Source of the DNA: Escherichia phage L14
Direction: 5' to 3' (one strand)
Length of the DNA stretch: 64,000 nucleotides
Sequence record: OQ992558.1
Made by a program: the position numbers and the translations under genes. Shown one piece after another: positions 10,686 to 63,256 of the stretch (the first letter of the stretch is position 1; each line of letters starts with the position of its first letter). A model generated the notes under the pieces. That model was not told the origin of the DNA. It ran no database searches and saw only the letters and a program-made list of their open reading frames with translations.

Positions 10686-10736
10686 AAATTTTCCGCTTAG
10701 TTAATAGTTGGTGACTCGTCCGTGAGTCAAATTATA

Positions 10737-13001
10737 TCATAATTTACAGGATGAACAATCTTCAGCTTTTGGAGTTTCTATTTCATAATCATCAGTACCA
10801 GAACCATCGCGTGTATTATGATAATAGAAATTTTTAATGCCATAATACCATCCGTATAGCATGTCATCAATCATTATTGACATTGGAACCTTTCCTTTTG
10901 GAAAAATCTGCGGATCATAATATGTATTCGCTGAAGCTGATTGACATACCCATTTCAGCATAATAGCTACCTGCGTAAGATAAGGTTTATTACCTTTCTT
11001 GGCTAATTTCCATGTATAATCATAGAGGTCTATGTTATGCTCAATATTCGGAACAACTTGATTAAATGAACCATCTTTTGATTCTTTAACACTTACCGGT
11101 CCGCGTGGAGGCTCGATGCCGTTTGTACTGTTAGATACCTGACTGGACGATTCACAAGGCATAAGTGCTGATAATGTGCTATTACGGATGCCAAAGAGCT
11201 TAAGGTCTTCCCGCAGCGCCGACCAGTCACAAACGTATTTTGGAGCTGCGATTTGGTCAATCTTTTTATTGTACCAGTCGATAGGTAATTCGCCTCGAGA
11301 CCAACGAGTGTCTGAATAATATTCGCAAGGTCCTTTTTCTTTGGCGAGCTTAATGGATGCTTTAATGAGTCCATACTGTAATCTCTCAAATAATTCATGT
11401 GTTAAATCGTTAGCATCTTCATAAGAAGCAAAGTTACTTGCCAGCCAAGCTGCATAGTTGGTAACACCTACACCAAGGTTACGGCGCTTTTTAGCTTTTT
11501 CTGCTTCAGGAACTGGATATCCTTGGTAATCCAACAGATTATCAAGAGCACGAACTTGAACTTCTGCCAATTCATTAATTTTATCTTGGTCTTGCCAGTC
11601 AAAATTATCTAGTACGAATGCAGAGAGAGTACACAATCCAATTTCAGCATCAGGACTATTCACATCATTTGTTGGAATAGCAATTTCACAGCACAAGTTA
11701 CTCTGACGAATAGGCGCCTTTTCACGAATAAACGGAGTATAGTTATTCGTATTATCAATGAACTGCACATAAATCCTTGCGGTTCCTGAACGTTCAGTCA
11801 TGAGCAATTCAAATAGTTCACGGGCTTTAATACGCTTTTTACGAATATTAGGGTCTTTTTCTGCTGCTTCGTATAATTCACGGAAACGGTCTTGGTCTTT
11901 AAAATAAGAATAATAAAGCTCGCCACCCATTTCATGCGGACTGAACAAAGTAATGTAATCATTCTTTCCGAATCGTTCCATCATCAAATCATTCAGTTGA
12001 ACACCATAATCCATATGACGAATGCGGTTTTCTTCTACGCCTTTGTTATTTTTCAAAACAAGAAGATTTTCAACTTCCAAATGCCAAATAGGATAATAAG
12101 CAGTAGCAGCGCCGCCACGAATTCCACCCTGTGAGCATGATTTAACAGCAGTCTGAAAATGTTTCCAAAAAGGAATAACACCAGTATGGCGTACTTCACC
12201 CATGCCAATCTTAGAACCTTCAGCACGAATCATACCAACGTTAATACCAATTCCAGCGCGTTTAGAGATATATTCAACAATTGAAGCAGAAGCCTTATTG
12301 ATAGACTTCAGTGAATCGCCTGCCTCAATAACAACACATGAACTAAACTGCCGAGTTGGAGTACGGCAACCAGCCATAATAGGAGTTGGTAATGAAATCT
12401 GTCGAGTAGATACCGCTTCATAAAAACGGATAACATGTTTTAATCTATCAACAGGTTCATCTTGATGCAATGCCATTCCAATAGTCATAAATGCAAACTG
12501 TGGAGTTTCATAAATTTGACCAGTGGTTTTATCTTTAACTAGATATTTTTCTTTTAATTGCATCGCCCCGGAATAAGTAAATTCCATATCCCGCTCGTGC
12601 TTAATTTTTGATTCTAAAAATGTAATTTCTTCTGCTGAATATTTTGACAATAATTCAGGGTCATATTTACCTTCATTTACACAGTAAGAAATATGGTCAA
12701 TAAATGAACGTGGTTCATACTGCCCATAAACATGCTTACGAAGAGCGAACATTAAACAACGTGCAGCTACATATTGATAATCAGGCTCTTCAACCGAAAT
12801 AGAATTCGCAGCGGCCTTAATGACAATAGTCTGAATATCATCAGTTGTCATTCCATCACGGAGATAAGATTTAATATTTTCATATAATTCATAAGGATCT
12901 ACTGATGTTCCTTCAGCTGCCCAAGATAAAACTTTAATAATTTTTTGCGGGTCAAAGCTCTGAGAAACACCACTACTTTTGATAACATTAATTAATTGCA
13001 T
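10737..13001 (-). CDS. nrdA: ribonucleotide reductase large subunit (754 aa)
   Basis: Class Ia RNR alpha; C-terminal CSSCKL-type tail; length equals T4 NrdA. Confidence 0.92.
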   Translation of the reverse strand: MQLINVIKSSGVSQSFDPQKIIKVLSWAAEGTSVDPYELYENIKSYLRDGMTTDDIQTIVIKAAANSISVEEPDYQYVAARCLMFALRKHVYGQYEPRSFIDHISYCVNEGKYDPELLSKYSAEEITFLESKIKHERDMEFTYSGAMQLKEKYLVKDKTTGQIYETPQFAFMTIGMALHQDEPVDRLKHVIRFYEAVSTRQISLPTPIMAGCRTPTRQFSSCVVIEAGDSLKSINKASASIVEYISKRAGIGINVGMIRAEGSKIGMGEVRHTGVIPFWKHFQTAVKSCSQGGIRGGAATAYYPIWHLEVENLLVLKNNKGVEENRIRHMDYGVQLNDLMMERFGKNDYITLFSPHEMGGELYYSYFKDQDRFRELYEAAEKDPNIRKKRIKARELFELLMTERSGTARIYVQFIDNTNNYTPFIREKAPIRQSNLCCEIAIPTNDVNSPDAEIGLCTLSAFVLDNFDWQDQDKINELAEVQVRALDNLLDYQGYPVPEAEKAKKRRNLGVGVTNYAAWLASNFASYEDANDLTHELFERLQYGLIKASIKLAKEKGPCEYYSDTRWSRGELPIDWYNKKIDQIAAPKYVCDWSALREDLKLFGIRNSTLSALMPCESSSQVSNSTNGIEPPRGPVSVKESKDGSFNQVVPNIEHNIDLYDYTWKLAKKGNKPYLTQVAIMLKWVCQSASANTYYDPQIFPKGKVPMSIMIDDMLYGWYYGIKNFYYHNTRDGSGTDDYEIETPKAEDCSSCKL

Positions 13002-13870: not shown

Positions 13871-14190
13871 CATTATGTTCAGATAAGGTCGTTAATCTTA
13901 CCCCGGAATTATATCCAGCTGCATGTCACCATGCAGATCAGACTATATCTTCAACTTGTTAAAGCAAGTTGTCTATCGTTTCGAGTCACTTGACCCTACT
14001 CCCCAAAGGGATAGTCGTTAGGCATTTATGTAGAACCAATTCCATTTATCAGATTTTACACGGTAAGTAACTAATCCTGATGAAATTATTAAAGGGTAGT
14101 CCTACAATTTAGCACGGGATTGTCTACTAGAGAGGTCCCCCGTTTAGATAGATTACAAGTATAAGTCACCTTATACCTAGGCCTCAATTA
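13871..14190 (-). other. group I self-splicing intron in td, 320 nt, no internal ORF
   Basis: 5' end UAAUUGAGGCCUAGGUAUAAGGUG..., 3' end ...UAACGACCUUAUCUGAACAUAAUG match recalled T4 td intron ends; exon 1 ends in U, intron ends in G. Confidence 0.85.
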
Positions 14191-14739
14191 ACCCAAGAAA
14201 ACATCTACACTGCGTTGATACCATTGTAAATCAAGATAACCATTACGCACATTAAACTGATAGAACATATGACAAGGTGGTAATGCCATATATTTAAGTT
14301 CAGCTGGATTCCACGCAGAAACAATTTGACGCCTATCACTTGGTAGTTTTTTAATACGATCAATAACTTCTATAATTTGGTCTACACCGCCAAAATCGCG
14401 CCACTGTTTTCCATAAATTGGGCCAAGTTCACCACTATGGTATCCTAAATCTTTTGCCTGATTTTCGTAATTTTCATCCCAAACTGTTTTGCCTTGGATT
14501 AACGAATCATGCTGAATTAATCGTAAATCATTGACATTTGTGCTTCCTGATAAAAACCAAAGTAGCTCAGCAATGCAAGCTTTCCAGGCGAGCTTCTTAG
14601 TTGTTACCGCAGGAAAACCTTTAGTTAAATCCCAGCGTAATTTAGTACCGAATAAAGCAATTGTTCCTGTGCCTGTTCGGTCATCGGTTTCATAGCCATT
14701 TTCAAAAATGTCTTTAATTAAATCTTGGTATTGTTTCAT
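14191..14739 (-). CDS. td: thymidylate synthase, exon 1 (183 aa)
   Basis: TS active-site region ...LPPCHMFYQF...; ORF hits stop UAA exactly at intron 5' end. Confidence 0.9.
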
Positions 14740-16713: not shown

Positions 16714-17094
16714 CTACTTTTTGAAAGTTTTTCGCAAAAGTTCAATGATTTCATCTACATTGTTTTCGTCAACAATGCAGTGAATTTTTGTTACGCCAGA
16801 AACTTTGTCTTTGACTTCATCTTCTTCAGAAGTCGGTTCTTTATACTCACGAAAACAATGAAATTCGTCTTCACAAACGTTAAAGTAAAAATGCTTTCCA
16901 TTTGCGCATTCAATGTGTTTTATTACTCTAAATCCATCAACAAAGAAAGCTTCTTTAACTTCAAACCATCCGCCATTTTCTTGAATAATTTTAACTATTG
17001 CTGAATTAGAACGTGGGCGATAATTAATAAATGTATCAATAAGTCTTGGAACAAGTTCATACTTTTTGCCGATTTCCATTTTGATTTTCCTCAT
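16714..17094 (-). CDS. hypothetical protein (126 aa)
   Basis: ORF in 32-frd interval. Confidence 0.45.
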   Translation of the reverse strand: MRKIKMEIGKKYELVPRLIDTFINYRPRSNSAIVKIIQENGGWFEVKEAFFVDGFRVIKHIECANGKHFYFNVCEDEFHCFREYKEPTSEEDEVKDKVSGVTKIHCIVDENNVDEIIELLRKTFKK

Positions 17095-17124
17095 TTTAAT
17101 AGGGGCTTAATAGCCCCTTGATAA

Positions 17125-17352
17125 TTATTGTTCAATCATTCCCATGTAAAATTCTGTGTCTTCAGCATCCATACCATCACAATATTCATTAGCCATAAAG
17201 CGGGTGAGGTCTTCAAGAGGACCTTCAATAACGATTTGAATACTCCAAAACTTAGAATCTTGTACGCTTGTGATACTAAGTTCAGGATAACGATTACGAA
17301 TAATTTCTTCAATATATTCAAAATCAACGATGTCAATATCAACTTTAGCCAT
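17125..17352 (-). CDS. hypothetical acidic protein (75 aa; start at internal Met with AGAGGAAA RBS)
   Basis: RBS-supported start; the longer ORF-track start would overlap the upstream promoter. Confidence 0.45.
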
Positions 17353-17395
17353 ATTATTTTCCTCTTTAATTATCAGCAGTATTGCCGATAGTTGT

Positions 17396-17425
17396 ATAGT
17401 ACCATGGAAGGACAAGGATGTAAAC
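17396..17425 (-). promoter_or_regulatory. T4-early-type promoter
   Basis: plus gtaaac 17420-17425, atagta 17396-17401; part of a repeated promoter module. Confidence 0.45.
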
Positions 17426-17448
17426 CGTTTTGTGAAAAAATTTTTGAA

Positions 17449-17475
17449 ATAAAAAAGGGGACCTCTAGGGTCCCC
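17449..17475 (-). terminator. rho-independent terminator downstream of gene 32
   Basis: GGGGACC/GGUCCCC stem followed by UUUUUU on minus strand, 23 nt after gene 32 stop. Confidence 0.7.
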
Positions 17476-17497
17476 AATTAATTAGTAATATAATCTA

Positions 17498-18406
17498 TTA
17501 AAGGTCATTCAAAAGGTCATCCAGGTCTGTGTCATCAGCACTAGATGAACTGCCAGAGCTTGAGCTCATAAAATCATCTTCAGTTTTTGTTTTGAAGTCA
17601 TCAACATTGAATGCATCCAAATCATCAGCAACTTTATCAGCTTTCTTAGCGGCAGTTGCAGCGGCACCACCCATTGCAGCAGTTCCCATAACTTGACTGA
17701 ACTTAGTGCTCAGTTCTTCAAATGATTTGAATTTATCTTTAGAAGTCATTTCAGAAAGGTCAACCATTTGTTCGAACAGTTCTTTCTGGAAAGATTCATC
17801 GTCAATGTTTGGAATCGCAGATTGATTCAGGAATTTAGATTCGTCGTAGTTACTAAATCCAGAAACCTGTTTAACTTTCAGTACAAAGTTAGCACCTTCC
17901 CACGGACAAGTTACATCAACCGGAGTTTCACCCATTTCAACATCAACCGCAATCATCGCGTTGATTTTATCCCAGATTTTCTTACCGAAACGATATTTAA
18001 ATACTTTACCTTCATTTTCTGGAGCAGCTGGGTCTTTTACAACAAGAATATTAGCCCAGTAAGAAGTTTTACGTTTAACAAGACTGTACTCTTTATTGTC
18101 AGTGTTGTACAGATCATTTTTACTGATGTACTGACATACTGGACAAGAATCGTAATCACCGTGGGTAGATGAACAGTTTTCAATATACCATTTACCATTT
18201 TTCTTGAAACCGTGATTTACAAGAATTGCGAATGGTGCTTGTTCATCATTTTTAGACGGAAGAAAACGAATTACTGCTTGACCGTTACCCGCATTGTCGA
18301 GTTTCAGTTTCCACTCGCCTTTATCTTCAGAAGAAAAACCACCTTTATTTCCAGCCAGTTTAGCCATTTGTGCAGCGAGTTCAGCAGTAGATTTACGTTT
18401 AAACAT
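17498..18406 (-). CDS. 32: gp32 single-stranded DNA-binding protein (302 aa)
   Basis: N-terminus [17 protein letters not shown]... and acidic C-terminal tail match recalled T4 gp32. Confidence 0.93.
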
Positions 18407-18475
18407 TTTTATTTCCTTTTTTAATTTAATTAACAGTTGGTGCTATGACGATGTATGACCTCATAGCTGGTCAGT
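18407..18475 (-). promoter_or_regulatory. gene 32 translational operator: pseudoknot plus AU-rich UUAAAUUAA repeats
   Basis: Minus-strand leader CAGCUAUGAGGUCAUACAUCGUCAUAGCAC then UUAAUUAAAUUAAAAAAGGAAAUAAAAAUG, as recalled for T4 gp32 autoregulation. Confidence 0.6.
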
Positions 18476-18506
18476 GAGATAATTATAATCTATTTATAAT
18501 AAGCAA

Positions 18507-26487: not shown

Positions 26488-29472
26488 ATGGCTACTTTAA
26501 AACAAATACAATTTAAAAGAAGCAAAATTGCAGGTCAACGTCCTGCAGCTTCAGTATTAGCCGAAGGTGAATTGGCTATAAACTTAAAAGATAAAACAAT
26601 TTTCACAAAAGATGACTCAGGTAGTGTTATAGAATTAGGTTTAAAATATGGAGGAACAATTGATGGTTCTTTAACTGTTAATGGAAATATAATTGGAAAT
26701 TTAACAGGTAACGCTGCAACTGCAACGAAATTAAAAACAGCACGAAAAATTAATGGTATATCCTTTGATGGGTCAAAAGATATCACGCTAACTCCATCTG
26801 ACATAAATGTCAATAGCACAACGTTTATAAAAAATAATGGCGAATTACCTGTTGATGCTAATTTAGATACGTATGGGCCTGTTGAAGAATATCTTGGAGT
26901 TTGGTCGAAAGCAACTTCAACCAACGCTCAACCAGCAAATAAATTTCCAGAAGAAAATGCTGTAGGTGTGCTAGAAGTATTTGTGGCCGGTCAATTTGCT
27001 GGTACTCAGAGATATACAACTAGATACGGAAATGTTTATATTCGTTCCTTGACTGCTACATGGAACGGAGTAAATGGTCCGTGGAGTGTGTGGCGAAATA
27101 TTCAATCCGGTACTCGTCCACTGTCAACAACAATTGATCTTAATGATCTAGGAGGCGCTGAACACTTTGGTTTGTGGCGAAATAGTTCAAATTCCATTGC
27201 TACCTTTGACAGAAATTTCCCAGAAGAGGGGTCGTCAGCTCAAGGTCTTTTGGAAGTATATGAAGGTGGAAAATATTCTCGTACACAAAGATATACAACC
27301 AGATTTGGTGTTGTATATACTCGTTGTCTTGCTGCCGCGTGGGATGCTTCCGCGCCTAAATGGGGACCGTGGCAACAAGTCGGTAATGTCACACCAGCGA
27401 CTTTCTATGACGGAGATCTGAATGATTTTAAAACCCCTGGGTTATATAATATTTTAGGCACTGATGCCGTTATTAACTGTCCTACAGGTGAAGGTTTGCC
27501 GCCTGTTATTATTGGTTTACTGGAAGTTAAACAGCGTGCTTCCGGTGGTGCTATTTTCCAAAAATTTACTACTGCCGGAACGGGTGCAACTACTCGCGGA
27601 CGTATTTTTGAGCGTGCATATACTGGTGGTGCGTGGGGCGCATGGAACGAAGTATATACATCTTATTCTCTGCCAATTACTTTGGGTATGGGTGGTATTA
27701 AAACTCAATTAGCGGAGCTAGATTGGCAAACATTTGATTTTGTTCCTGGTAGTATGTTTAGCGTTCCTTTGAACAAAATAAAGAACATGCCAGCAAATAT
27801 GGATTGGGGCACGATTGATGGAAACTTGATTATGTTTTCCGTCGGTCCTAGCGAACACACTAGCACAGGGCGTACTGTTCAGGTTTGGCGTGGTACTGTA
27901 TCCCAGACAAACTACCGTTATTTTGTCGTTCGTGTATTCGGTAATTCAGGAAATAGAGCTTGCACAGTTCGTCGTGTTGTTCTTGAAGATGGTCGCCACA
28001 AATGGACAGCGCAACAAGATTTTAATGGTGCTGTTAACTTCGGTGCTCCTACCAATTTTAACTCTACTGTTAACCTTAATAACACTACCACTTTTAAAAC
28101 AGAAGTTAAATTTCGCTCATTGAATGCATTCCGTATGTATGGCGGAAAATTTGGTACATTTTTACGTAATGATGGAGAGAGTCTTTATATTCTTTCCACC
28201 GACGAAGATGATCAAGATGGAAACTTTAATACAAATAGACCTTTCCGTTATGAATTAAGAACTGGTGATGTTACTTTGGGTGGTGCTAGTGGTGCTAACG
28301 TTTTAAAATTAAAACGTGATTCTCTCACCGCATTTTTTGGTGGTGATATTAACATGAAAGGCTTGATGACTTTTGACGCCGGACGTTTAGGATCACGAGA
28401 TTATTTTAAATTTAACCATTGGGGTGATAGCAATAACGCTCGTGATAACATTATTCAGTTAGAAGATAGCAAAGGCGTTCATTTTTCCACTGAACGTACT
28501 TTAGCGACTGGTGCAATTAAAACTAAATTCTTTGGTGAAGTTGAATCAACTGGTCGATTGACTATTAAACGTCCGGGTGATGCGATTGTATTATCGACTA
28601 CAGCCAGCAACTCTTTGCATATTCGTGGTGACGTAGACGGGACTGGTAACTGGTATATTGGCAAGGGTGGTGCTGATAATGGATTAGCGTTCTATAGTTA
28701 TGCTACTAATGCTGGTGTATACATTACAAACGGAGGGGATATCGCGCTAAGTCCAAAAGGTGTCGAAATGGCTCAGGTCAATAACGTTCGATTATATGTT
28801 CATGGTGAACGTTGGACCGCTAGTCAACCAGGTGATTGGGGTAGTCAGTGGCAAGTGGAAGCGCCAATATTCGTCGATCATGGTTATGTTTCACAGGATT
28901 GTTATTATCCAATTATTAAAGGAAGAAGTGTAATCACCAATCAAGGGTATGTAACTGCCGTCGATCTTGGTATTCGTCGTGTCAATAACAATTGGGGACA
29001 AGCAATTATTCGTGTTGGATCTGCAGAGGCATCGCCAGCGGCTGGACACCCTAACGCGGTATTTGAATTTCATTACGACGGTACTTTCTATTCTCCTGGT
29101 AATGGTAATTTTAGCGATGTGTATATTCGTTCTGACTCCCGTCTCAAGATTAATAAAGAAGAATTAGAATATGGAGCGGTCGAAAAAGTTTGCCGACTAA
29201 AAGTTTATATTTACGATAAAGTTAAGTCTATTAAAGACCGTAGTGTTATTAAACGTGAAGTTGGTATTATTGCTCAGGACCTTGAAAAGGAATTGCCGGA
29301 AGCTGTATCTAAAGTTGAAGTTGATGGATCTGATGTTCTGACAATTTCTAACTCTGCTGTGAATGCTCTTTTAATTAAGGCCATTCAGGAAATGAGCGAA
29401 GAAATTAAAGAATTGAAAACACCTTTCTTCACTAAAATTGCTCGCAAAATTAGTAATTATTTTAAATTCTAA
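26488..29472 (+). CDS. 37: gp37 long tail fibre distal subunit (994 aa) with C-terminal chaperone-like domain
   Basis: Position/size; N-terminal region similar to gp36 N-terminus; internal duplicated QRYTTR-G-VY-R-L motifs. Confidence 0.9.
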
Positions 29473-29504
29473 CAGCAGGGGGCTTTGCCCCTTTGGAGAA
29501 AATT

Positions 29505-30287
29505 ATGGCAGTAGTTGGTGTTCCTGGTTGGATTGGTAGTTCATCCGTAAATGAAACAGGACAACGATGGATGAGTCAAGCGGCTGGTCAATTAAGATTG
29601 GGTATTCCTTGCTGGATGAGTCAATTTGCAGGTCGCTCAAGAGAAATTATTCACACGCTTGGAGCAGACCATAACTTCAATGGTCAATGGTTCCGAGATA
29701 GATGTTTTGAGGCAGGTAGTGCACCTATAGTGTTTAATATCACTGGAGATTTAGTATCATATTCTAAAGATGTTCCTTTATTCTTCATGTACGGAGATAC
29801 ACCGAATGAATATGTTCAGTTGAACATACATGGTGTAACGATGTATGGCCGTGGCGGGAATGGCGGTAGCAATAGTCCTGGCTCAGCTGGGGGTCATTGT
29901 ATTCAAAATGATATTGGTGGGAGACTAAGAATTAATAATGGTGGAGCTATTGCTGGCGGCGGTGGCGGCGGGGGCGGCGGGTATTATTCTCCTTTTTCAC
30001 AAATGAGATTGACCTTTGGCGGTGGCGGCGGTCGTCCGTTTGGCGCACCGGGCGGATCTATTGATATGCAATCAGGAGCAACTGCTGGTACTATTTCTGC
30101 GCCAGGCGCAGGGTCTGTGAACGGTATCTACAACGGCGGGTCTGGTGGTGAAGTTGGCTCCGCAGGAGGTAGATGTAATATTCGTGGTCAAGGATATGAA
30201 TACGATGGCGGAGCTGCTGGTTATGCCGTCATAGGGTCTACACCGACATGGCAAAACGTTGGAGCAATATATGGTCCAAGAGTATAA
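29505..30287 (+). CDS. 38: gp38 tail-fibre adhesin with glycine-rich motifs (260 aa; ATG at 29505 with GGAG RBS)
   Basis: Poly-Gly runs ([18 protein letters not shown]) as in T2-type gp38; unlike the 183-aa T4 chaperone. Confidence 0.85.
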
Positions 30288-30319
30288 TTTTTGAATAAAT
30301 ACCCTTAAAAGGAGGGTCT

Positions 30320-34171: not shown

Positions 34172-34321
34172 TTACTGCATGACTGTGATAACTGTCATGA
34201 TAACACGTTGAATTCCGAACGCAAGAAGACCTCCTGCTACGGCAGGAACAACACCTAAACCCGACAGTAAAATGCCACCAGATACTAATGCAGCGCTTGT
34301 AATACCTATGAATGGACTCAT
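34172..34321 (-). CDS. small hydrophobic membrane protein (49 aa)
   Basis: Hand-translated; ATGA overlap with gene 52 stop; below ORF-track cut-off. Confidence 0.4.
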   Translation of the reverse strand: MSPFIGITSAALVSGGILLSGLGVVPAVAGGLLAFGIQRVIMTVITVMQ

Positions 34322-35646
34322 TTGATTTCCTCTAAATCTTTGGTGTATTCTGTAACTACATCAGTAGTTTTCCAATATTCGTTTTCTTCTTTTTTAGCTT
34401 TAGCTTCTTCAGCAAGTTTCTTTGCTTCGTCGGAAGTCATATGAAAAATATTCATTCCAACTAGTTTATCAACATAAGAAGAATACATATCAATTTTAGA
34501 AAGTTCTTCGGTCAGTTCTTTGCGAGTTTTACCCTGCACAACAATTTCACCTGAAATTACTTTCTTAATGAAATGTGCCTTGGCAAAAGCTAAACGAAAT
34601 GCTGATTCAGTTTCTTTGATTTTGTTATCAATTCGTTTTTGGACATAAGTTTTACGAACTTCAACGAAGTCTTTGATTAAATCAACTACATTATCGTAAA
34701 CTTGCAGCTTTCCTTTCTCATTAATGACGGTAATATTCTGGGAACGACGCTCAATCAACCCGAAGTCTTTCATAATTTTTGCATGGCGTTCTTCTTCATT
34801 ATCGCTTAAGGAATATTCTTTTCGGAATTTAACTTTGAAGCCAAAGCCATGCTCACCACAAGCATCATCCCATGTAATGAAGCCTTTATCTTCAAGCGGG
34901 TCTAAGATTTTACTCACATAAGTTTCACGATCATACTTATATGGAATCTCAGTGATATGCATTTGAGTTCGTGAAGTAAACTTATATGTTCCACGAATTT
35001 CATATTGCCCATCAATTTCAACGACTTCACCACGAAATTCTGGGAATTCTACCTTCGGTTTAGTTACTTTCTTTCCTTGAAGAGCTTGCAGTACAGCTTT
35101 CTTGACAGAAGAAACACTATGAGGAAGAATGTAAGTTGCATAACCAGTTGCAATACCGGAAACGCCATTAAGAAGAACAGTAGGAATAATAGGCAAATAG
35201 AAAGCAGGCGGAATGTGTTCTTTATCTTGATGTACTGGAGCATATTCAGTATCTTTATATACGTTATAGAAATTTTTACTTACACGAGCAAAAATATAAC
35301 GACTTGCTGCTGCCTTTTGGACAGTACGAGAACCAAAGTTTCCTTGACCGTCTAACAGAGGAAAGTTATTATTCCAAGTGTTAGCCATCAAAGCACCTGC
35401 GTCTTGCGCAGAGTTTTCACCATGATGATATCCAAGGTCCGCTACACCGCCTGCGATAGAAGCGAGTTTGTGAAACTTATCTTTATTTCCTCGTGCCAAA
35501 TCAAGAGCTCGAGCAATAACAAATCGTTGAACTGGCTTAAATCCGTCAATCATATTTGGAATGGCACGATTTTCAACCGTGTACATAGCATAAGCCAATG
35601 CTTCATTATCAATGATACTTTTTAAATCACGATTATTCAGTTGCAT
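34318..35646 (-). CDS. 52: gp52 topoisomerase II medium subunit (442 aa)
   Basis: Type II topoisomerase DNA-cleavage domain; matches recalled T4 gp52. Confidence 0.93.
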   Translation of the reverse strand: MQLNNRDLKSIIDNEALAYAMYTVENRAIPNMIDGFKPVQRFVIARALDLARGNKDKFHKLASIAGGVADLGYHHGENSAQDAGALMANTWNNNFPLLDGQGNFGSRTVQKAAASRYIFARVSKNFYNVYKDTEYAPVHQDKEHIPPAFYLPIIPTVLLNGVSGIATGYATYILPHSVSSVKKAVLQALQGKKVTKPKVEFPEFRGEVVEIDGQYEIRGTYKFTSRTQMHITEIPYKYDRETYVSKILDPLEDKGFITWDDACGEHGFGFKVKFRKEYSLSDNEEERHAKIMKDFGLIERRSQNITVINEKGKLQVYDNVVDLIKDFVEVRKTYVQKRIDNKIKETESAFRLAFAKAHFIKKVISGEIVVQGKTRKELTEELSKIDMYSSYVDKLVGMNIFHMTSDEAKKLAEEAKAKKEENEYWKTTDVVTEYTKDLEEIK

Positions 35647-39816: not shown

Positions 39817-41994
39817 TTAGGCCGCAAGGGCCTTCATAGTTTTAGCGATTTGAGAAACTTCATCATCACTTAAAGAGTTGCGATATCCGATGAAGTCGGA
39901 AACAATACGGAATTTCTTGGTAAACTCAGCAACCATTTTATCACTGTTTTTTGAAGCATTATTTGATAATACATCAAAAAGATTAGTTACTGTCCAGATA
40001 TCATGACCGATGGTATCTTTTCCACCATTAAAATATACACCGCGCAATGAACTAACTATATTAGCGAGTCGTGTATATTCTTCAGAAACTTCATCTGTAC
40101 TGAAGTACTTCATCATAAAATCTAGTTCAGGATACTTGATAATTTTATCAATATATCGTTGAGCTGAACTTGAATAACCTACATACTTATCATAATCTAC
40201 ATCATCAAAAGCATCTACATATAAATCACGCAAAGCTTCAAAAATACATTGGCACTGACCGAGTTCTTTTACCTTTTTCTGTAAAAGCGGACGAATAACA
40301 TAAAATTCATTAATGCCAATAAGATTAGCCATACGAATCAAAATATTCATAGATGGATGACAAAGAGATGTAGTACCATCCATAGAGAAAATATCAGAAC
40401 GATGCATATACGCTACATAACCAGTAATTTCATCTGCTTCTGATGTGAGCGTAAACAGTTCCTCTTTTTCCCATCGCCCATCTTTAATTTCAAACTTAAA
40501 TGCTGTAGCAGCTTTAGGACGAGGAGCTTTACTTTTAACTACCTTTGGAATATAGCTTTTAACTAAAGCTTCAATTTCTGACAAATAATGAATGTTAACT
40601 TCATCACTTTCAAACATCGCCATAATATCAGGAAGTAAATCAATCTGCGATTCTACTTCTGGATTAATAAACAGAAGACGCTCATTGTGATGAATATTCA
40701 AAGTGTTATTAAATTCACTATCATCTAACGCATGTGCTAATCCACGGACAATATTAACACGATTTTTAATATTATCAATAACGATATTAATTTTTGTTGT
40801 ATTAATACCGAACAGACGATAACTTGATGCAACGGCTGAAGTTTCATGACTTTGCTTAATGCGTTTCAGTCGAGGGTCAAGATTTACTTCATACACAACT
40901 CCTGCATTGCATAGTTTACTATCAGGTTCAAACATGCTTTGCATCTTTTTATATGACAGATTTTTAGTCGTAAATTTGACTGAATTACTAATCATATAAT
41001 CTCGAGCAGAATATCCCATCTTCATCAATTCACGGTATGTATGACGAGGAGATGTAGATTCTTTAAATCGTTTTACATCTTCATTGAATGCCTTCTCACT
41101 AAGCTCTTTAACGCGCTCAATAATATTTTTACGAGTACGATCATCTAGTGAAAGAGCTTCGCGTGATGGAGCAATATCAAGTGAACCCATTGGAAACTTA
41201 ATGTAATTCACTTCATTGCGGATGCTTAACCAGTTACGGTCTCTAATAACGCCATCGATAGGATAAACAATACCACCATAGATAGCATACAATCCACCAC
41301 GATCTGGCCAATATCTTTCTGGATTTACGCCGTAATAGTCATCAAAATCCGGAAAATAATCAATTTCGCGGTCAAGACCATTAATGATAGCCAAATCTTT
41401 GAATGGTCGCATGATATAAGAAACTTCATAAGCAAAGTTTCTAAAGTCCTTTTCTTCAACTGGAACTACGATTTCAATACCAGTTTTATCATCTGGACCC
41501 ATTTCTTTTACGAACGTAGGTTTAATTTGCGGACCATCACCATCCATGTAAGCTACATAACCACGAATTTCGCCTTTATGATATGAAGTAATACTAAATG
41601 TATCAGTATAACTAAACGGAGATTTAGAACCTAAACCAAATCCACCAATGAAATCGTTAGATTCAGCCTTAGATGAACTAAAGTATGAATTATACAACCC
41701 AGGAGAATTATCATCACCTTGAATATCAAAATCGCTCATACCCGGACCAAAATCTCGGCAAACAAATCGCGGATCTAATCGTCCTGGAACTTGAATGATA
41801 AATTTTTCATGATTTCCATTGAGAGCATGGGCGTCAATCATGTTGGTAATCAATTCACGGACTACTGCGCGAATCTTGTTTGTATACAAATCAGATGACA
41901 GAATTTTAAATACTTTAGGAGATGCTGTGATGCTAAATGCTTTTGATTTAGAACCATTGCCAAGAATTGTTTCTTTTTCAGTGGTGATAATCAT
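39817..41994 (-). CDS. rIIA: rIIA (725 aa)
   Basis: Matches recalled T4 rIIA length; GHKL-type ATPase-like N-terminus. Confidence 0.92.
39819..39833 (-). promoter_or_regulatory. stem-loop at rIIA/rIIB junction
   Basis: aggcc gcaag ggcct inverted repeat. Confidence 0.4.
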
Positions 41995-42004
41995 AATTTC
42001 CTCA

Positions 42005-42208
42005 TTAATTCATATTACGCTTAATAACTTCAGCAACTTCTAGTAATTCATCTTTAGTTGCAGTGTCGGATTGAATTTTATCTCTAATATCTTTAAAGCG
42101 GTTTTTAAATTCTTCGGCTTCTCCCATATCGAAAAAGCGTTGAATGATTCTATATTCTCGATGAACTGCTTTATCAAAAAGTTCTAAATTTACTTTATAT
42201 GATTTCAT
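42005..42208 (-). CDS. hypothetical protein (67 aa), rIIA.1 position
   Basis: ORF between 39 and rIIA. Confidence 0.5.
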
Positions 42209-42233
42209 TTCAATATCCTCATTTGCCCAATTA

Positions 42234-42263
42234 ATTATACCACATCCTTGTGGTAAAGTAAAC
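42234..42263 (-). promoter_or_regulatory. T4-early-type promoter (GTTTAC / TATAAT)
   Basis: plus gtaaac 42258-42263, attata 42234-42239. Confidence 0.45.
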
Positions 42264-44083
42264 TACTGGCTCATCCATTCTTTACGAAGGTCAGCATTAT
42301 CTCCCATGAGCATTTCAAAAAGCTCTTTCCAGTTCTCAGGAAGTTTAACAACATCATATACTGGATTTTGAATCATCTCACGATATTCAGATTTTTCCAA
42401 AGAGCCAAGTCCTTTAATATAACGGATGCTATGTTTAGGTAGAGCATCTTTAGCACTCTCATATTCAGCGACTGTATAAAACCATTCTTGTTTTTTACCG
42501 ACCTGAGCGATGATTACAGGAGTTTTGACAAAACGAATTCTTCCTTGCTCAAACAGTTCTGGCCAATTACTAAAAAACCCGAGCAGAGAAGGATAAATGC
42601 TTCCTAGACCATCATGGTCAGCATCAGTCATAATAGCAATATTATGATAATTCAAGTTTTCAGCTTTTTCACCGAGAACTAATCCAGTGATTGCGCAAAT
42701 ATCAAACAATTCTTTGTTTTTAAGCATATCAGCATATGACATACCCCAACTGTTGAGAACTTTACCGCGCAATGGATAACCACCATGAAGTTCTTTATCA
42801 CGAACATCAATAAGATATCCGATAGCAGAATCACCCTCAGTCAAGAAAAGAGTAGTGTCAGCATCTTTACCGCAAAGATTCGCTTTAATGTGTTTATGAA
42901 CCTTAGCTTTAGAAGCCTTTTTAGCTGCTTTAGTTTCTGCTGCCTTTTCTGCCGCCAATTTACGAGCCAAAGCAGCTTCAATAATTGGCATTAAAATTGC
43001 TTCATTGTTTAAAATAGCACGTGAAATCTTTTTAGCATCAAGCTGAATATGACTACGAATTTCACCAAATGGAGAAGTCAAACGCTCTTTAGTTTGAGAA
43101 TCAAATCGCATGTTTTTCATATCACGAACAAACATAACGATAGTCAAACATTCTTTAACACGTGCTTTAGTTACATCAATTTTGAACTTACGTTTGATTT
43201 GTGGAATAAGGTCTTCACAAATATCATCCATAACACAGTCAATGTGATGGCCACCATTCTTAGTGTGAATGTTATTGACGTATGTTAATTGACGAAAACC
43301 ATCCGGTGAACGACCAACCGCAATAGAACAATTTTCTTGTTCTTGAACAATAGCATGCTCATCATATTGGCGTGCATATTTCTTAAAATTGCCCTGAACC
43401 TTTTTACCATTAAAGGTAAATTGAATATCAGGATAAACTACTGCAAGTGTCTGGAGACGATCTAGTGTAATGTCAAGATAAACTTGGGACAGCTCATTAG
43501 TTTCAAATGACATAAAATCAGGAATGAAAGTAACACGAGTTCCTTTCCATTTTCCAGGAATAGTTTCCCATGATTTATTTTCCATGCCATTTGAACAACG
43601 AACTACAATATTATTTTGACCATCACCAGTTTCACCGACAAACATCACAGAAAAAATGTTTGTCAAACTAGAACCAACACCATTCATACCGCCAGTGACG
43701 CGTTCTTTATCATCACCGAAGTTACCACCTGCTTTTGGAATAGTCCATGCAGCAACAGGACCAGGAATTTCTTCACCGGTAGGTGTTTTAACCATCGCCT
43801 GCGGAATACCACGACCGTTATCTTCAACTGTTACTTGATTGTTTTTAATAGTAACATTAATTTTATTTGCGAATTTAAACTTAGTACGAATACCTTCATC
43901 TACTGAGTTATCGATAATTTCATCAATAAGCTTAACAAGACCAGGTACATACTGAACACTTTCCCATTTACCAAACAGAAAGCGCTCATGCATTTCATTA
44001 GCAGAAGAGCCAATATACATGCCGCTACGCTTTTTGATATGTTCAATATCACTCAGAATTTTAATTTCATTCTTAATCATCAC
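42263..44083 (-). CDS. 39: topoisomerase II large (ATPase) subunit, unsplit 606-aa form
   Basis: GyrB-like ATPase and TOPRIM regions in one continuous ORF. Confidence 0.9.
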   Translation of the reverse strand: MMIKNEIKILSDIEHIKKRSGMYIGSSANEMHERFLFGKWESVQYVPGLVKLIDEIIDNSVDEGIRTKFKFANKINVTIKNNQVTVEDNGRGIPQAMVKTPTGEEIPGPVAAWTIPKAGGNFGDDKERVTGGMNGVGSSLTNIFSVMFVGETGDGQNNIVVRCSNGMENKSWETIPGKWKGTRVTFIPDFMSFETNELSQVYLDITLDRLQTLAVVYPDIQFTFNGKKVQGNFKKYARQYDEHAIVQEQENCSIAVGRSPDGFRQLTYVNNIHTKNGGHHIDCVMDDICEDLIPQIKRKFKIDVTKARVKECLTIVMFVRDMKNMRFDSQTKERLTSPFGEIRSHIQLDAKKISRAILNNEAILMPIIEAALARKLAAEKAAETKAAKKASKAKVHKHIKANLCGKDADTTLFLTEGDSAIGYLIDVRDKELHGGYPLRGKVLNSWGMSYADMLKNKELFDICAITGLVLGEKAENLNYHNIAIMTDADHDGLGSIYPSLLGFFSNWPELFEQGRIRFVKTPVIIAQVGKKQEWFYTVAEYESAKDALPKHSIRYIKGLGSLEKSEYREMIQNPVYDVVKLPENWKELFEMLMGDNADLRKEWMSQ

Positions 44084-44133
44084 TTATCCTCGTTTGGTTT
44101 CGGGAATATTATACTCCGGTAATCATAAAGCTA

Positions 44134-44149
44134 AAGGCCCGAAGGCCTT
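44134..44149 (-). promoter_or_regulatory. UUCG-loop stem-loop (AAGGCC-UUCG-GGCCUU)
   Basis: Inverted repeat upstream of gene 39 RBS. Confidence 0.45.
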
Positions 44150-44419
44150 TTATTTAAAACGGATAGTCGAATCCTTGAAGAATAGACCAGAACACACGGT
44201 TCCTTCTACTTTCTGCCCAGTAGGTCCAATAGCACGAAATCCAGTATGTTGAAAATCATTTTCAGAGCAACCGAACCAGTTGTATCCAGTGATTTCAATA
44301 TTAGTAAAACCACTTGAAGACAAAACTTTGGTTGCATTATCAGCATCAGTACATCCTGCTAAAGACACTGCTAATACTAATGCTGCGATAGAACGATTAA
44401 TATATTTCATAGTTTTCAC
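44150..44419 (-). CDS. putative lipoprotein (89 aa)
   Basis: Signal peptide with lipobox LAGC. Confidence 0.5.
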   Translation of the reverse strand: MKTMKYINRSIAALVLAVSLAGCTDADNATKVLSSSGFTNIEITGYNWFGCSENDFQHTGFRAIGPTGQKVEGTVCSGLFFKDSTIRFK

Positions 44420-44787
44420 TTAAATTTAATGGCTTGAAGGAGACTAATAATTCTCAAGCGACTTCTTTCATCTTTAACCGTAAATGAAAGAGGGTCACCA
44501 GATTTCATAATGATAGTGCATTCAAAATCAAAATCTTCGGGAACTTCTTCGAAGAAGTCAAATTCTTCATCATATATTAGAACATTACTCTGAAAACTGT
44601 GAAGAATTTTTCCATCATTTCCAGATGCTGTACTAATCATTGTAACATTATTACCTTTCATATCTTCAACGATAAATTCGCTTGTAGATATTACGGCATT
44701 AATAGAACCATTCCTATAAATAGCAGAAAATAGATATTTCTTTTCTTCACCTTCGCGAATGCGATATTTCTTACCAATTTTAAACAT
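44416..44787 (-). CDS. hypothetical protein (123 aa)
   Basis: ORF, 4-nt overlap with neighbour. Confidence 0.45.
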   Translation of the reverse strand: MFKIGKKYRIREGEEKKYLFSAIYRNGSINAVISTSEFIVEDMKGNNVTMISTASGNDGKILHSFQSNVLIYDEEFDFFEEVPEDFDFECTIIMKSGDPLSFTVKDERSRLRIISLLQAIKFK

Positions 44788-54790: not shown

Positions 54791-55027
54791 TTAACCACCT
54801 ATTTCTGTAGGCGTAAACATTGCAGCATTCTTAGTTTTCCAAGTTGTTGCATCGGAAACTACATCAGAATAAGCTGCTTTTTCTGACGGAAAGATTTGAT
54901 AATGAGAATCTGCAATACGGTGTTCATTTGAATATACATCAAATGCTACAGAAACTTCCATACCTTTAACTTCTTTGCCTTCACCTGCTGGATGAGTAAA
55001 GGTCTTGATGTTAACGAAACCACCCAT
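54791..55027 (-). CDS. soc: small outer capsid protein Soc (78 aa)
   Basis: VNIKTF...YQ-FPSEKAAYS motif matches recalled T4 Soc. Confidence 0.75.
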   Translation of the reverse strand: MGGFVNIKTFTHPAGEGKEVKGMEVSVAFDVYSNEHRIADSHYQIFPSEKAAYSDVVSDATTWKTKNAAMFTPTEIGG

Positions 55028-55058
55028 AATAAACTCCTTTATTGTTTAATTACAGGTG

Positions 55059-55066
55059 TATTTATA
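55059..55066 (-). promoter_or_regulatory. T4 late promoter box TATAAATA for soc
   Basis: plus tatttata = minus TATAAATA, ~31 nt upstream of soc ATG. Confidence 0.6.
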
Positions 55067-55240
55067 TCAGTCTTCAATGAAAACTTGTGCCAGGAATTCG
55101 TGTTCATCTTGAATTTGTTTATATAAAGCCATTACAGCATTTATATTAGATCTATCTACTTTAAGTTGATAGGCATACCACTCGTATAAATTAATTAAAG
55201 CTTTTTGTCGTCTAATAAATTCTTCTTTGGATATTTTCAT
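55067..55240 (-). CDS. hypothetical protein (57 aa)
   Basis: Hand-translated; ATGA overlap with upstream ORF; below ORF-track cut-off. Confidence 0.4.
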   Translation of the reverse strand: MKISKEEFIRRQKALINLYEWYAYQLKVDRSNINAVMALYKQIQDEHEFLAQVFIED

Positions 55241-55437
55241 TTTGAATGCTCTATAATTAATTTTAAGGCTTCTTTACTGACAAAAATTTCATCAAGACCT
55301 TCTTCTACACCCCAATCAACTACACGAAGCTGATTAGATAAGAGCTCGTATGTGAGCTCCTTGTCATAATTTTTAAATAGCTGGTCAATACGTTTCTTGT
55401 GGGCTTTCTTAAGCTGGCGTTTATTTAAACGAGCCAT
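55237..55437 (-). CDS. hypothetical protein (66 aa)
   Basis: ORF between 56 and soc. Confidence 0.45.
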   Translation of the reverse strand: MARLNKRQLKKAHKKRIDQLFKNYDKELTYELLSNQLRVVDWGVEEGLDEIFVSKEALKLIIEHSK

Positions 55438-55955
55438 TAATAACCTCGGTCTTGACGAGCGAAGTTTTCAGCATTTTTCAGATAATAAAGTTTAAAGATT
55501 TCTTCAGCCGTAAGACCGAGGCCTTGGAACATGTTCAGAACGAAATGAAGAATATCAATCATTTCGAATTTAATTTCCAACTGGTCTTGTGGAGACAAAT
55601 CAGTAATCAGAGTTTCACGTCGTTCACCATGTTGAGCTTTCCAAGGCTTCCATACAGCAGATGCATCTTTTTCACCATTGCTCATACCACCAAGAGAAGT
55701 CAATAGTTCGCGGAATTCATCATCAATATAATCTTTCTGATTACGCAGCCAATCAACAACTTCACCCGCAGTAGCCAAATCATCAGGATGACGGTTATAT
55801 TCAGGTTTATCTTTAGCTAAACGAACCTGCAGAGATTTCTGCATATCAAGCATAACTTGCAACGGGTCTTTTTCATCACCGAGAATATCCCAGTATTCAT
55901 TTTGAGCTTTATCAGCGCCTTCAATCAGTTGTGAACATTCATTAAAGTATGCCAT
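55437..55955 (-). CDS. 56: dCTP pyrophosphatase, MazG-like (172 aa; start at MAYFNE)
   Basis: Start matches recalled T4 gp56 N-terminus; ORF-track N-terminal extension is hydrophobic and likely spurious. Confidence 0.8.
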   Translation of the reverse strand: MAYFNECSQLIEGADKAQNEYWDILGDEKDPLQVMLDMQKSLQVRLAKDKPEYNRHPDDLATAGEVVDWLRNQKDYIDDEFRELLTSLGGMSNGEKDASAVWKPWKAQHGERRETLITDLSPQDQLEIKFEMIDILHFVLNMFQGLGLTAEEIFKLYYLKNAENFARQDRGY

Positions 55956-56026
55956 TATTTTTCCTTTCAATTCATGGGTTAGTAGATTAATTATACAATA
56001 AATATATAAAGCAATAAGGAGGACAT

Positions 56027-60443: not shown

Positions 60444-61599
60444 TTAACTGCTCGAGGTCAGTTTCTAAATCAGCTGCTGATTTACTTTTACTTTCTGGAG
60501 ATTTAAATTTTTCAACCTTTGAGTTAATCAATTCATCAACTTCAGCTTCAACAATTTCATTACTATCAATAGCACCTAACTGATAAGCGCGTTTAATAGC
60601 ATCTCGGAATGGTTGATGCTTAAATAAAGGACCCCAGAATGTAGTGCAGTTAGTATCTTTTGCACGCCAAGATTTTTCTTCGCGAATCATCTCACCGGTT
60701 TCTTCATCAAGAAATTCACGAGCATACCAACCATTTTTAGGTTTTACTACAAATCCTAATTCTAGAGCCATATCTAACAATCCAGAATAAGGATCGATAC
60801 CACCGTCAAATTTAACATCAATAAAGAATTTACTTTTTTCTTTAACTGTACGAGATTTTTCTACATTTAGAACAAATTGATACCCCTGAAGATCAGAACC
60901 ATCTTTAATCTGGCGCTTACCGATAATGAATACAGTATCAGCCGAATACATTACGCCTGTACCACCTGTCATCACGGTTTTACTAAACATTTCAATGGTT
61001 TCAATTGTATGGTTAACCGCAACACATGGAATATTTTTAATACTAAAATAAGGAGTAACAATACGGAATAATGACTTCAGTGATTTAGCACGAGTCATAT
61101 CTGCAACAGATTTTTCATTCAAGGCATCTTCCGTTTCTTTCTTAGAAGCCATATTACCAATTGAATCGATGAATACAATAACTTTTTCACCACGCTCAAT
61201 AGCTTCAAGCTGATTCACCATATCAATTTTCAGCTGTTCAACTGACTGGATTGGCGTATGAATTACTCGTTCCGGGTCAACTCCCATGGATCGCAAATAA
61301 GCTGGAGTAATACCAAATTCACTATCATAGAATAGACAAACCGCGTCAGGATATTTGTTCAAATATGCCGCAACCATAGTCAAAGACATATTTGATTTAA
61401 AGTGTTTAGAAGGCCCTGCGAAAATAGTTAAACCAGACTGCATACCGCCATCAATCGCACCAGAAATAGCAATATTCAGCATTGGAATTTTTGTACGGAT
61501 TACATCCTTTTCATTAAAGAATTTAGATGTAGTCAGTTCAGCAGTCATTTTAGAAGTGGAAGCTTTAATCAAACGGGATTTTAAATCTGCAATAGACAT
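60418..61599 (-). CDS. uvsX: UvsX recombinase (RecA-like), 393 aa
   Basis: Walker A GPSKHFKS; matches recalled T4 UvsX. Confidence 0.92.
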   Translation of the reverse strand: MSIADLKSRLIKASTSKMTAELTTSKFFNEKDVIRTKIPMLNIAISGAIDGGMQSGLTIFAGPSKHFKSNMSLTMVAAYLNKYPDAVCLFYDSEFGITPAYLRSMGVDPERVIHTPIQSVEQLKIDMVNQLEAIERGEKVIVFIDSIGNMASKKETEDALNEKSVADMTRAKSLKSLFRIVTPYFSIKNIPCVAVNHTIETIEMFSKTVMTGGTGVMYSADTVFIIGKRQIKDGSDLQGYQFVLNVEKSRTVKEKSKFFIDVKFDGGIDPYSGLLDMALELGFVVKPKNGWYAREFLDEETGEMIREEKSWRAKDTNCTTFWGPLFKHQPFRDAIKRAYQLGAIDSNEIVEAEVDELINSKVEKFKSPESKSKSAADLETDLEQLSDMEEFNE

Positions 61600-61676
61600 T
61601 CATTTTTTCCATAGGCATCATTATATTTTCCTCACTGGTTAAAGATAGAGTAATTATAACACGATAAATTTAGGCA

Positions 61677-62525
61677 TTAATCAACTGCTATTGGATGAAT
61701 AGCATTAAACTTATGAAATGCTTCTGATTTTTCTTTACGTGAAACGCACATGCGAAGAACCTTTAATGGCTCGTCTTCTTCACCCAACGATTTTCGTTTT
61801 TCAATATTCGACGTTTTCCAACGAGCTTGCTCTGGAAACTCTCTATTGATTTGCTCAAGCGCTCTATTATGTTTAGAATTACTACGAATTGAACTACACC
61901 CACCAGGAGCTTGCGCTTTTCCAGATACAACCAGATATTTGAACAAGGCCAAATGCGGATAACCTTGATTAATTAAATTGAGAAATGCATACATATCTTC
62001 GCACAAATCAATTTTTCCATACCCAATTTGTTCTGTCGTAAGTTTTCCGAGGTCATACCATGTATTCGTGAATCCATATGAATTTTCACGATAATTACCC
62101 CAAGATGAAGTAATTTTAAAAATTGGTAGACGAGCATGGCCATGATAATACCCGCAATCCATGGCATCCTCAACATATTGAATCAATTCATAGAACTGTT
62201 CACGAGTCAATTGATTGACTTTATCTACACAACGACGGTCATCTCTTTTTCGCATTGAACTCATACGAATAGTAGTATCATCGTCAATCATCCAGATTCG
62301 TTGACCTGCATACATATCAGTAATTGCTTTACGAGTACCGGCAATTCCGTTTACATCATCAGGAATAGTTATAATTTTAGCTCTAGACCCATAGGCATCA
62401 TAATAAGCTTTTTCTTCATGTTCACGCACTATAATATGCGGTTCATAATCAGTCGGAAACATATCAAGGGCAGAAACTGCCCCTACACGCTGATAACTTG
62501 GAATTACGAATTGAATCATTTCCAC
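61677..62525 (-). CDS. glycosyltransferase with DXD motif (282 aa); candidate HMC-glucosyl transferase
   Basis: IWMIDDDTTIR DXD motif; occupies the uvsX-42 slot where T4 has the 351-aa beta-gt. Confidence 0.6.
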   Translation of the reverse strand: MEMIQFVIPSYQRVGAVSALDMFPTDYEPHIIVREHEEKAYYDAYGSRAKIITIPDDVNGIAGTRKAITDMYAGQRIWMIDDDTTIRMSSMRKRDDRRCVDKVNQLTREQFYELIQYVEDAMDCGYYHGHARLPIFKITSSWGNYRENSYGFTNTWYDLGKLTTEQIGYGKIDLCEDMYAFLNLINQGYPHLALFKYLVVSGKAQAPGGCSSIRSNSKHNRALEQINREFPEQARWKTSNIEKRKSLGEEDEPLKVLRMCVSRKEKSEAFHKFNAIHPIAVD

Positions 62526-63256
62526 TCACCATTATAATCTTTTTTCACAATATGAGTTTCGCCAGTATTCCACCAATGATCAACCAAGTAAAAATGACGA
62601 GAATATACATGAAGACTTCCAACATTCCATATAATAGAACCTGCTTTATATTGACGAGTTGAATCGCCTGCATTCAAATCAGATACTAATTTATCTAATA
62701 CGTATTTTTGCCATGCATAATCATTACGGAATCCGAAGACCACATCATTTGAGCGCATGTTAACAACCGCATTGATTTTCTTGTCACGAATCAGGTATTG
62801 TACTGTATTTGTACACATGAAATCTGACATGCCATCTTTATTGTAGTCAAACTGCATAGATGGACGAGTATAAATCATGATACCACGTCGAGAATCAGGA
62901 TTTTGACCAAGTTCAGCTAAACACATGTCATATTGAGCATAGTTATCTTCTGACCAGATAGCCCAACCATAATTCGAGTTAATTTCACCTTTAGAAGATG
63001 CTACTTGTTGCCAAATCTTCGGTGTTTCACCCGGAATATCTTTAACGAACAAGCTTTTAGATTTATACCATTCAAGTTCACGCTGAATGTATTCATCATT
63101 AAGAGCGCCAAAAATAAACGGTTCATCTGCTACAAATGATGCGCCAATAATTTCAATAGTTTTAACACCAGTTTTATCAACTACGAAATCTTTTTCTTTT
63201 AATGCAAGTCCCAAATGAAGACGGATTTCTTCAACTGTCATAGAGTCACTAATCAT
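62516..63256 (-). CDS. 42: dCMP hydroxymethylase (246 aa)
   Basis: TS-fold enzyme; matches recalled T4 gp42 length and position. Confidence 0.9.
   Translation of the reverse strand: MISDSMTVEEIRLHLGLALKEKDFVVDKTGVKTIEIIGASFVADEPFIFGALNDEYIQRELEWYKSKSLFVKDIPGETPKIWQQVASSKGEINSNYGWAIWSEDNYAQYDMCLAELGQNPDSRRGIMIYTRPSMQFDYNKDGMSDFMCTNTVQYLIRDKKINAVVNMRSNDVVFGFRNDYAWQKYVLDKLVSDLNAGDSTRQYKAGSIIWNVGSLHVYSRHFYLVDHWWNTGETHIVKKDYNGEWK

Follow-up and report, generated by a model that had tools for sequence, protein, structure and literature searches.

The T-even phage topoisomerase is composed of two subunits in T2 and T6 and of three in T4 (PMC11461880). T6 gp39 and gp52 form an active heterotetrameric type IIA topoisomerase with ATP-dependent relaxation activity, as established by cryo-EM and relaxation assays (PMC11461880), and structures of T6/T2-type large subunits include PDB entries 8YLU, 8YO1, and 8YOD, among others. 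Huang et al. 1985 are credited with the equivalence of the T6 gene to T4 genes 39 plus 60, and Bonocora et al. 2011 with the mobile mobA/bypass cassette, both as cited in PMC11461880. In T4, the split leaves the metal-binding site of Toprim shared out over two polypeptides (bioRxiv 10.1101/2022.08.31.505936). According to the same study, the MobA element deletes 64 nt of parental sequence and includes a 'homR' with 67-81% identity to the parent; on its 5' side it is inserted at nt 1399-1419 (AA 466-473, RB14 numbering), and on its 3' side it ends just past D490/G491, with a further 9 nt in the T4 clade (bioRxiv 10.1101/2022.08.31.505936). The conclusion that a selfish homing-endonuclease cassette produced both the T4 39/60 split and the 50-nt ribosomal hop as side effects has already been published.

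Here, we analyzed the corresponding locus in a 64,000-nt stretch of the Escherichia phage L14 record OQ992558.1, referred to below as the window. We are highly confident that the window derives from a Tequatrovirus (T-even phage) and that positions 42263-44080 are its intact gene 39. A first-pass annotation made from the sequence alone had described the locus as one 606-aa reading frame for the topoisomerase II large subunit, lacking the gene 60 split and the bypass element, continuous as in T2/T6-type phages, and effectively in the pre-insertion state. The features of the reading frame and the region upstream of it are as follows:

42263..44080, minus strand: gene 39, DNA topoisomerase II large subunit, 605 aa plus stop, uninterrupted
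44081..44083, minus strand: in-frame GTG abutting the ATG, the mechanical start of the ORF; sequence context GAGGATAAGTGATGATT
44087..44091, minus strand: Shine-Dalgarno GAGGA of gene 39, read from the sequence
44108-44113, minus strand: TATAAT, read from the sequence, after the hairpin that follows in this list
44133..44150, minus strand: GC-rich hairpin AAAGGCC-TTCG-GGCCTTT, read from the sequence, at the gene 39.1 stop codon

On the minus strand, positions 42263-44083 hold a single ORF of 606 codons from GTG, followed by a stop and free of internal stops or frameshifts, and all remaining ORFs inside these limits have at most 96 codons. The region upstream of gene 39 reads GAGGATAAGTGATGATTAAG, where the GAGGA is separated by 6 nt from the ATG (44080-44078) and by 3 nt from the GTG (44083-44081). 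In T4, T2, T6, and RB14, the annotated start of gene 39 is in each case the corresponding ATG, and the unsplit homologues of T2, T6, and RB14 are 605 aa each. Because of the GAGGA spacing and the ATG annotation in these four phages, we take the product to be 605 aa rather than 606 aa. The ATG at 44080 is almost certainly the true start, giving a coding sequence of 42263-44080, and the GTG at 44081-44083 is probably not an initiation codon of gene 39. The claim of one open frame over 42263-44083 therefore stands, but the count of 606 residues merely reflects how the ORF was delimited mechanically. Further upstream, the hairpin at 44133-44150 and the TATAAT at 44108-44113 likely constitute a terminator and promoter region; a 'terminator' is annotated in the matching region of close relatives. 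A promoter/terminator consensus scan called no terminator, leaving this hairpin unflagged, and found no significant excess of promoter-like sites.

The gene 39 protein contains the Pfam domains HATPase_c, DNA_gyraseB, and TOPRIM_C and matches the PHROGs family phrog_543, 'DNA topoisomerase II large subunit', over its full length (E=1.6e-295), while the gp60-type family phrog_7229 also matches it at residues 452-605. Among NCBIfam models there were solely sub-threshold gyrB/parE matches (234 bits versus a trusted cut-off of 740 bits), which says little about a phage-specific family; the identification instead draws on PHROGs and on identity to a PDB chain. Its best PDB match is 8YLU chain C, aligned 1-605 on 1-605 with 604/605 residues identical and Q526H as the sole difference; this chain is T6 gp39 (PMC11461880). 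From this 99.8% identity, we infer that the window protein together with gp52 would carry out ATP-dependent DNA relaxation. The residues of the Toprim site and the gene for the partner subunit are located as follows:

42836..42838, minus strand: Toprim catalytic glutamate E415 (HMMER alignment numbering), motif LTEGDSA, assigned to gp39 by the T4 split
42611..42625, minus strand: Toprim acidic cluster D486-A-D488-H-D490, motif MTDADHDG, assigned to gp60 by the T4 split
34318..35646, minus strand: gene 52, topoisomerase II medium subunit, GyrA-like, 442 aa, Pfam DNA_topoisoIV (E=9e-77), syntenic with T4 gene 52

The role of the glutamate in LTEGDSA is established for type IIA topoisomerases, and gp52 is the DNA breakage-reunion partner of gp39. 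In the window protein, E415 and D486/D488/D490 lie on one polypeptide. The neighbors of gene 39 are in T-even order, with rIIA.1 (Pfam T4_RIIA1, E=1e-33), rIIA (725 aa), and rIIB (312 aa) downstream and 39.1 upstream, and both the order rIIB-rIIA-rIIA.1-39-39.1 and the gp52 region are syntenic with T4. As read from these data, the gene 39 product is a GyrB-like large subunit whose single chain carries a GHKL ATPase at the N-terminus, followed by a transducer and an entire Toprim domain. With gp52, it would assemble into an A2B2 heterotetramer that uses ATP to break one duplex transiently on both strands and to pass another through the gap.

Alignment to the T4 proteins located the junction between the two parts. 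T4 gp39 residues 1-473 correspond to window residues 2-474 at 98.3% identity, and T4 gp60 residues 27-160 correspond to window residues 473-606 at 95.5% identity (BLASTP, both in the 606-residue numbering), with the gp60 alignment clean from about gp60 residue 32 (window residue 478 in the same numbering). The two alignments abut on the window protein, which places the junction at A473|E474 in the 605-residue numbering, between E415 and D486/D488/D490. Nothing in the window corresponds to the C-terminal 43 aa of T4 gp39 (FEEKEDGEWF...RKNL) or to the initial ~30 aa of gp60 (MKFVKIDSSS...), and only ENLNYHN stands between ...GLVLGEKA and IAIMTDADHDG; this tail and this head are encoded by the T4 insertion. 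The first-pass expectation that the C-terminal ~160 aa correspond to gp60 thus holds for gp60 residues from about 27 or 32 to 160, some 130 in all, but not for the first ~30 of its 160 residues, which match nothing.

At the DNA level, window positions 44411-42663 correspond to T4 positions 5660-3911 with 95.8% identity, and window positions 42598-41995 to T4 positions 2793-2190 with 98.3% identity (BLASTN). Between these flanking blocks, there are 64 nt in the window (42599-42662) versus 1117 nt in T4 (2794-3910). The window segment is

42599..42662, minus strand: 64-nt parental segment, gene nt 1419-1482, codons A473 (third base) to S494

The T4 block contains the gp39 tail, a mobA remnant, 60.1, the gp60 head, and then a diverged copy of the displaced segment, within which the 50-nt gap occupies T4 positions 2852-2803 and is followed by 9 further diverged nt. 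Compared with the window, the T4 copy is identical at 35/47 nt before the gap and at 5/9 nt after it, and the differences are nearly all synonymous. On this comparison, the breakpoint figures of the window and T4 match the published anatomy of the MobA element. The term 'pre-insertion state' can be kept with a refinement: the locus has the unoccupied form, with 64 nt where T4 has 1117 nt, but T4 is not the window plus a simple insertion, since 64 nt were displaced and a diverged copy supplied. We would use 'pre-insertion' in the sense of an empty homing site, a sequence that would fit equally well a locus that was never invaded and a parental allele regained by recombination.

No residue of the bypass was found when we looked for a take-off/landing pair. 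The codon at the T4 take-off position is

42608..42610, minus strand: Gly491 codon GGT (codon table), at the position of the T4 take-off GGA

In T4, the sequence runs GAT GGA, TAG...(50 nt)...GGA, TTA GGT TCT, whereas the window has GAT GGT CTA GGA AGC, in which the codons after the Gly491 GGT (CTA GGA AGC, Leu-Gly-Ser) are all sense codons; no stop follows the take-off position, and there is no stem-loop. The 27-nt take-off stem-loop motif GATGGATAGCCTTCGGGCTATCTATAG had 0 matches with up to 3 mismatches in the whole 64 kb. In tblastn searches of the window, the intact 272-aa MobA of HY01 and T4 gp60.1 gave nothing better than E=0.5, and the 43-aa gp39 tail and the 30-aa gp60 head gave a best E of 0.34, at unrelated loci. 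Scanning 41500-44600 against Rfam at E<=1 returned just two chance-level matches to unrelated families. Translation continues directly over GAT GGT CTA GGA AGC, so a bypass is unnecessary. Taken with the gap-free alignments to T2, T6, and RB14 described below, the lack of a take-off motif and of cassette remnants bears out the description of a gene with no gene 60 split or bypass.

The uninterrupted gene is the majority state among T4 relatives. A 181-nt query spanning the junction was covered at >=80% in one piece in 452 phage records, and a cassette-only query identified the T4 cassette in 43 records, among which laboratory isolates of T4 and RefSeq duplicates are numerous. Since RefSeq/GenBank duplicates and several lab isolates of T4 enter both counts, the resulting ~91% is approximate. 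We based the counts on these queries rather than on whole-locus megablast, in which pieces <=1.8 kb apart are joined and T4-type records score as '>=80% covered'. Because 452 records have the intact junction and 43 have the cassette, gene 39 is uninterrupted in roughly nine in ten T4 relatives, and T4 is the exception. The gene 39 locus of the window is the unoccupied allele of a site that holds the MobA homing-endonuclease cassette in T4 and a minority of its relatives.

T-even phages with few endonuclease genes, T2 among them, are already known. By synteny and tblastn, all other T4 homing-endonuclease elements of the shared 64 kb are absent from the window: the nrdB intron with I-TevIII, nrdB.1, mobE, the I-TevI ORF, segG, segF, and segA. 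The td gene has a 319-nt group I intron without an endonuclease ORF (Rfam RF00028, 70 bits), and such an ORF-less td intron likewise occurs in other deposited phages. Together with the further T2/T6-like features given below, these observations fit an endonuclease-poor T2/T6-like genome, in which the empty gene 39 site is unremarkable. A broader proposal is that the empty site is one symptom of a T-even genome barely occupied by homing endonucleases. We consider this very unlikely; nothing in the data points to an exclusion mechanism. If it were true, whether as a universal recipient or through a means of excluding elements, the phage would offer a natural tester strain of use in work on homing and on marker exclusion. 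The phage also has a gp38 adhesin, a T2/T6-like feature, and a beta-glucosyl-HMC-alpha-glucosyltransferase stands where T4 has segA plus beta-gt, likewise in T2/T6-like fashion. Another such feature is the lack of a dam homologue, none having been found in the window by synteny and tblastn.

An uninterrupted gene could also have arisen secondarily, by deletion of a cassette once present and in-frame rejoining of genes 39 and 60. Loss does occur in some lineages, as progressive element decay has been described, including a clade with secondarily fused ORFs, but the reported re-fused or decayed cases retain the element-encoded gp39 tail and gp60 head (bioRxiv 10.1101/2022.08.31.505936). Remnants of the tail, head, MobA, and 60.1 are absent from the window by tblastn, and the protein has exactly the length of those of T2, T6, and RB14, with no indel. 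Moreover, a deletion cannot regenerate the parental 64 nt, which are replaced on insertion by a diverged copy, and the 64 nt of the window are those of T2. We regard re-fusion as extremely improbable: the parental 64 nt and the lack of tail or head residues exclude it in practice.

Recombination offers a different route to the same sequence, in which an ancestor carried the cassette and regained the parental allele from an uninvaded co-infecting phage. T-even genomes are highly mosaic, and the window is about 96-98.6% identical to many phages by megablast while matching none exactly; most insertions have also been argued to be recent, so that loss may balance spread (bioRxiv 10.1101/2022.08.31.505936). 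Such a restoration leaves no signature and looks the same as a site that was never invaded, and the present sequence is unchanged by either history. However, the remaining T4 homing-endonuclease sites in the window are empty too, for which a lineage never invaded is simpler than repeated restoration, and we judge a restored site to be very unlikely. There is next to no probability that the continuous gene is an assembly collapse or a pseudogene that merely looks intact: we found nothing in favor of this, 452 records have the same continuous junction, the protein is one residue from the biochemically active T6 gp39, and the catalytic E415 and D486/D488/D490 are all there. We therefore retain the reading of an intact, unoccupied gene 39.

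An unoccupied gene 39 has a practical side. The 64-nt segment at 42599-42662 and its adjoining bases are identical to T2, and MobA nicking has been reported in T2 gene 39, with the nick site inside this region (bioRxiv 10.1101/2022.08.31.505936, citing Bonocora et al.). Since its 64-nt target is undamaged and does not differ from the T2 sequence, this phage is predicted to be cut by MobA and to act as a homing recipient in mixed infection. It could serve as one more natural recipient allele, with a T2-identical target, for homing experiments.

Overall, the first-pass interpretation was correct but not new, as its content has been textbook knowledge since 1985-2011. The gene organization, the mechanism of the T4 split, the responsible mobile element, and the structure of the unsplit enzyme are all already known, the last having been solved by cryo-EM (PMC11461880). 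The locus is a textbook illustration of an unoccupied target, as found in most T4 relatives, and its significance extends little beyond correct annotation, namely, as one gene for a topoisomerase II large subunit of 605 aa that begins at the ATG, without programmed bypass.

Comparison with the unsplit genes of described T-even phages gave the following identities to gene 39 of the window:

T6 gene 39: 1776/1818 nt, 604/605 aa, gap-free
T2 gene 39: 1752/1818 nt, 603/605 aa, gap-free
RB14 gene 39: 1777/1818 nt, 604/605 aa, gap-free

T6 and T2 share with the window both the length of 605 aa and the order rIIA.1 - 39 - 39.1, and they differ from it by point differences only, at 96-98% nucleotide identity. 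At the protein level, T6 gp39 has H where the window has Q526, and T2 gp39 has L and D where the window has F70 and T173. These single, colinear 605-aa genes, with 603-604/605 residues identical, confirm that the window gene is continuous as in T2/T6-type phages. In RB14, the gene is annotated as a single 605-aa gene, 'gp60plus39' (FJ839692), with 41 nt differences from the window over 1818 nt. RB14 also shares the neighborhood of the window, including an extra ORF between 39.1 and 39.2 (RB32ORF005c), which T4 lacks. Beyond the phages, the domain order of the window protein (GHKL ATPase, transducer, Toprim) is that of cellular GyrB/ParE and of the N-terminal half of eukaryotic topoisomerase II, and the protein aligns over its full length with human Top2 alpha/beta and ParE at E=1e-48 to 1e-60. 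Unlike cellular gyrase, the T4 topoisomerase relaxes DNA and does not supercoil it, and its GyrA-like phage partner, gp52, is short at 442 aa.

Across the intron and homing-endonuclease loci, the comparison with T4 begins at nrdB, which is intron-free in the window: at the corresponding site (10009/10010) the intron equivalent measures 0 nt, whereas the T4 intron spans 598 nt and carries I-TevIII. The following spacer is likewise short relative to T4, and tblastn with MobE and I-TevIII returned no match in the window. A group I intron is present in td (thymidylate synthase), where the match to Rfam RF00028 scores 70 bits and spans 13919-14200; the T4 version is 1017 nt long. Approximately 690-700 nt of the T4 td intron are missing because the window intron does not contain the I-TevI homing-endonuclease ORF, of which the final 22 codons are the sole remnant. 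HP3 and U115 are among the deposited phages that share an identical ORF-less td intron. Three further T4 homing-endonuclease genes, segG, segF, and segA, are all missing from the window, where tblastn gave no match to them. The positions of these loci are:

10686-10740, nrdB-nrdA spacer, 55 nt where T4 has a 700-nt block of nrdB.1 and mobE
13872-14190, minus strand, group I intron in td, 319 nt (Rfam RF00028)
18471-18505, 54798-55473, and 61588-62533, sites of the missing segG, segF, and segA

Around gene 39, which encodes the topoisomerase II large subunit, two features were identified:

42234-42262, minus strand, strong match (10/12) to a sigma-70-like promoter: TTTACT, 17-nt spacer, TATAAT, with an extended -10 TG
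44416-44787, minus strand, 123-aa ORF between 39.1 and 39.2, matching phrog_622 (unknown function)

The promoter scan placed the sigma-70-like match between gene 39, whose stop codon it directly follows, and rIIA.1, which lies downstream of it; the match is probably the known early promoter of the rIIA.1-rIIA unit. Gene 39.1 is 86-89 aa in the window, longer than the 65 aa annotated in T4. The 123-aa ORF, which shows weak similarity to a goF family, is absent from T4 but is annotated in RB14 and T6 as RB32ORF005c (similar to RB69ORF005c).

The distal part of gene 37 (tail fibre) and gene 38 (26622-30294, plus strand) could not be aligned to T4, and the T4 gp38 assembly chaperone had no tblastn match in the window. 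Divergence was also seen in a capsid gene. The coordinates are:

29493-30287, plus strand, 264-aa ORF after gene 37, matching phrog_2056 ("tail fiber protein; host specificity")
54791-55027, minus strand, Soc (small outer capsid protein)

The 264-aa ORF is the T2-type gp38 adhesin, not the T4 chaperone. Soc is only 47% identical to its T4 counterpart, whereas neighbouring genes are 94-97% identical in DNA, and soc is a locally divergent allele.

Genes for DNA modification differ from those of T4 as well. The T4 dam gene (DNA adenine methyltransferase; T4 16846-17625) has no counterpart in the window: its site (55976-56015) comprises 40 nt versus 919 nt in T4, and T4 Dam as a tblastn query gave no match within the 64-kb window. 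Elsewhere, a different gene occupies the place of T4 segA and beta-gt:

61677-62525, minus strand, 282-aa ORF, matching phrog_842 (beta-glucosyl-HMC-alpha-glucosyltransferase)

This match points to DNA glucosylation of the T2/T6 type.
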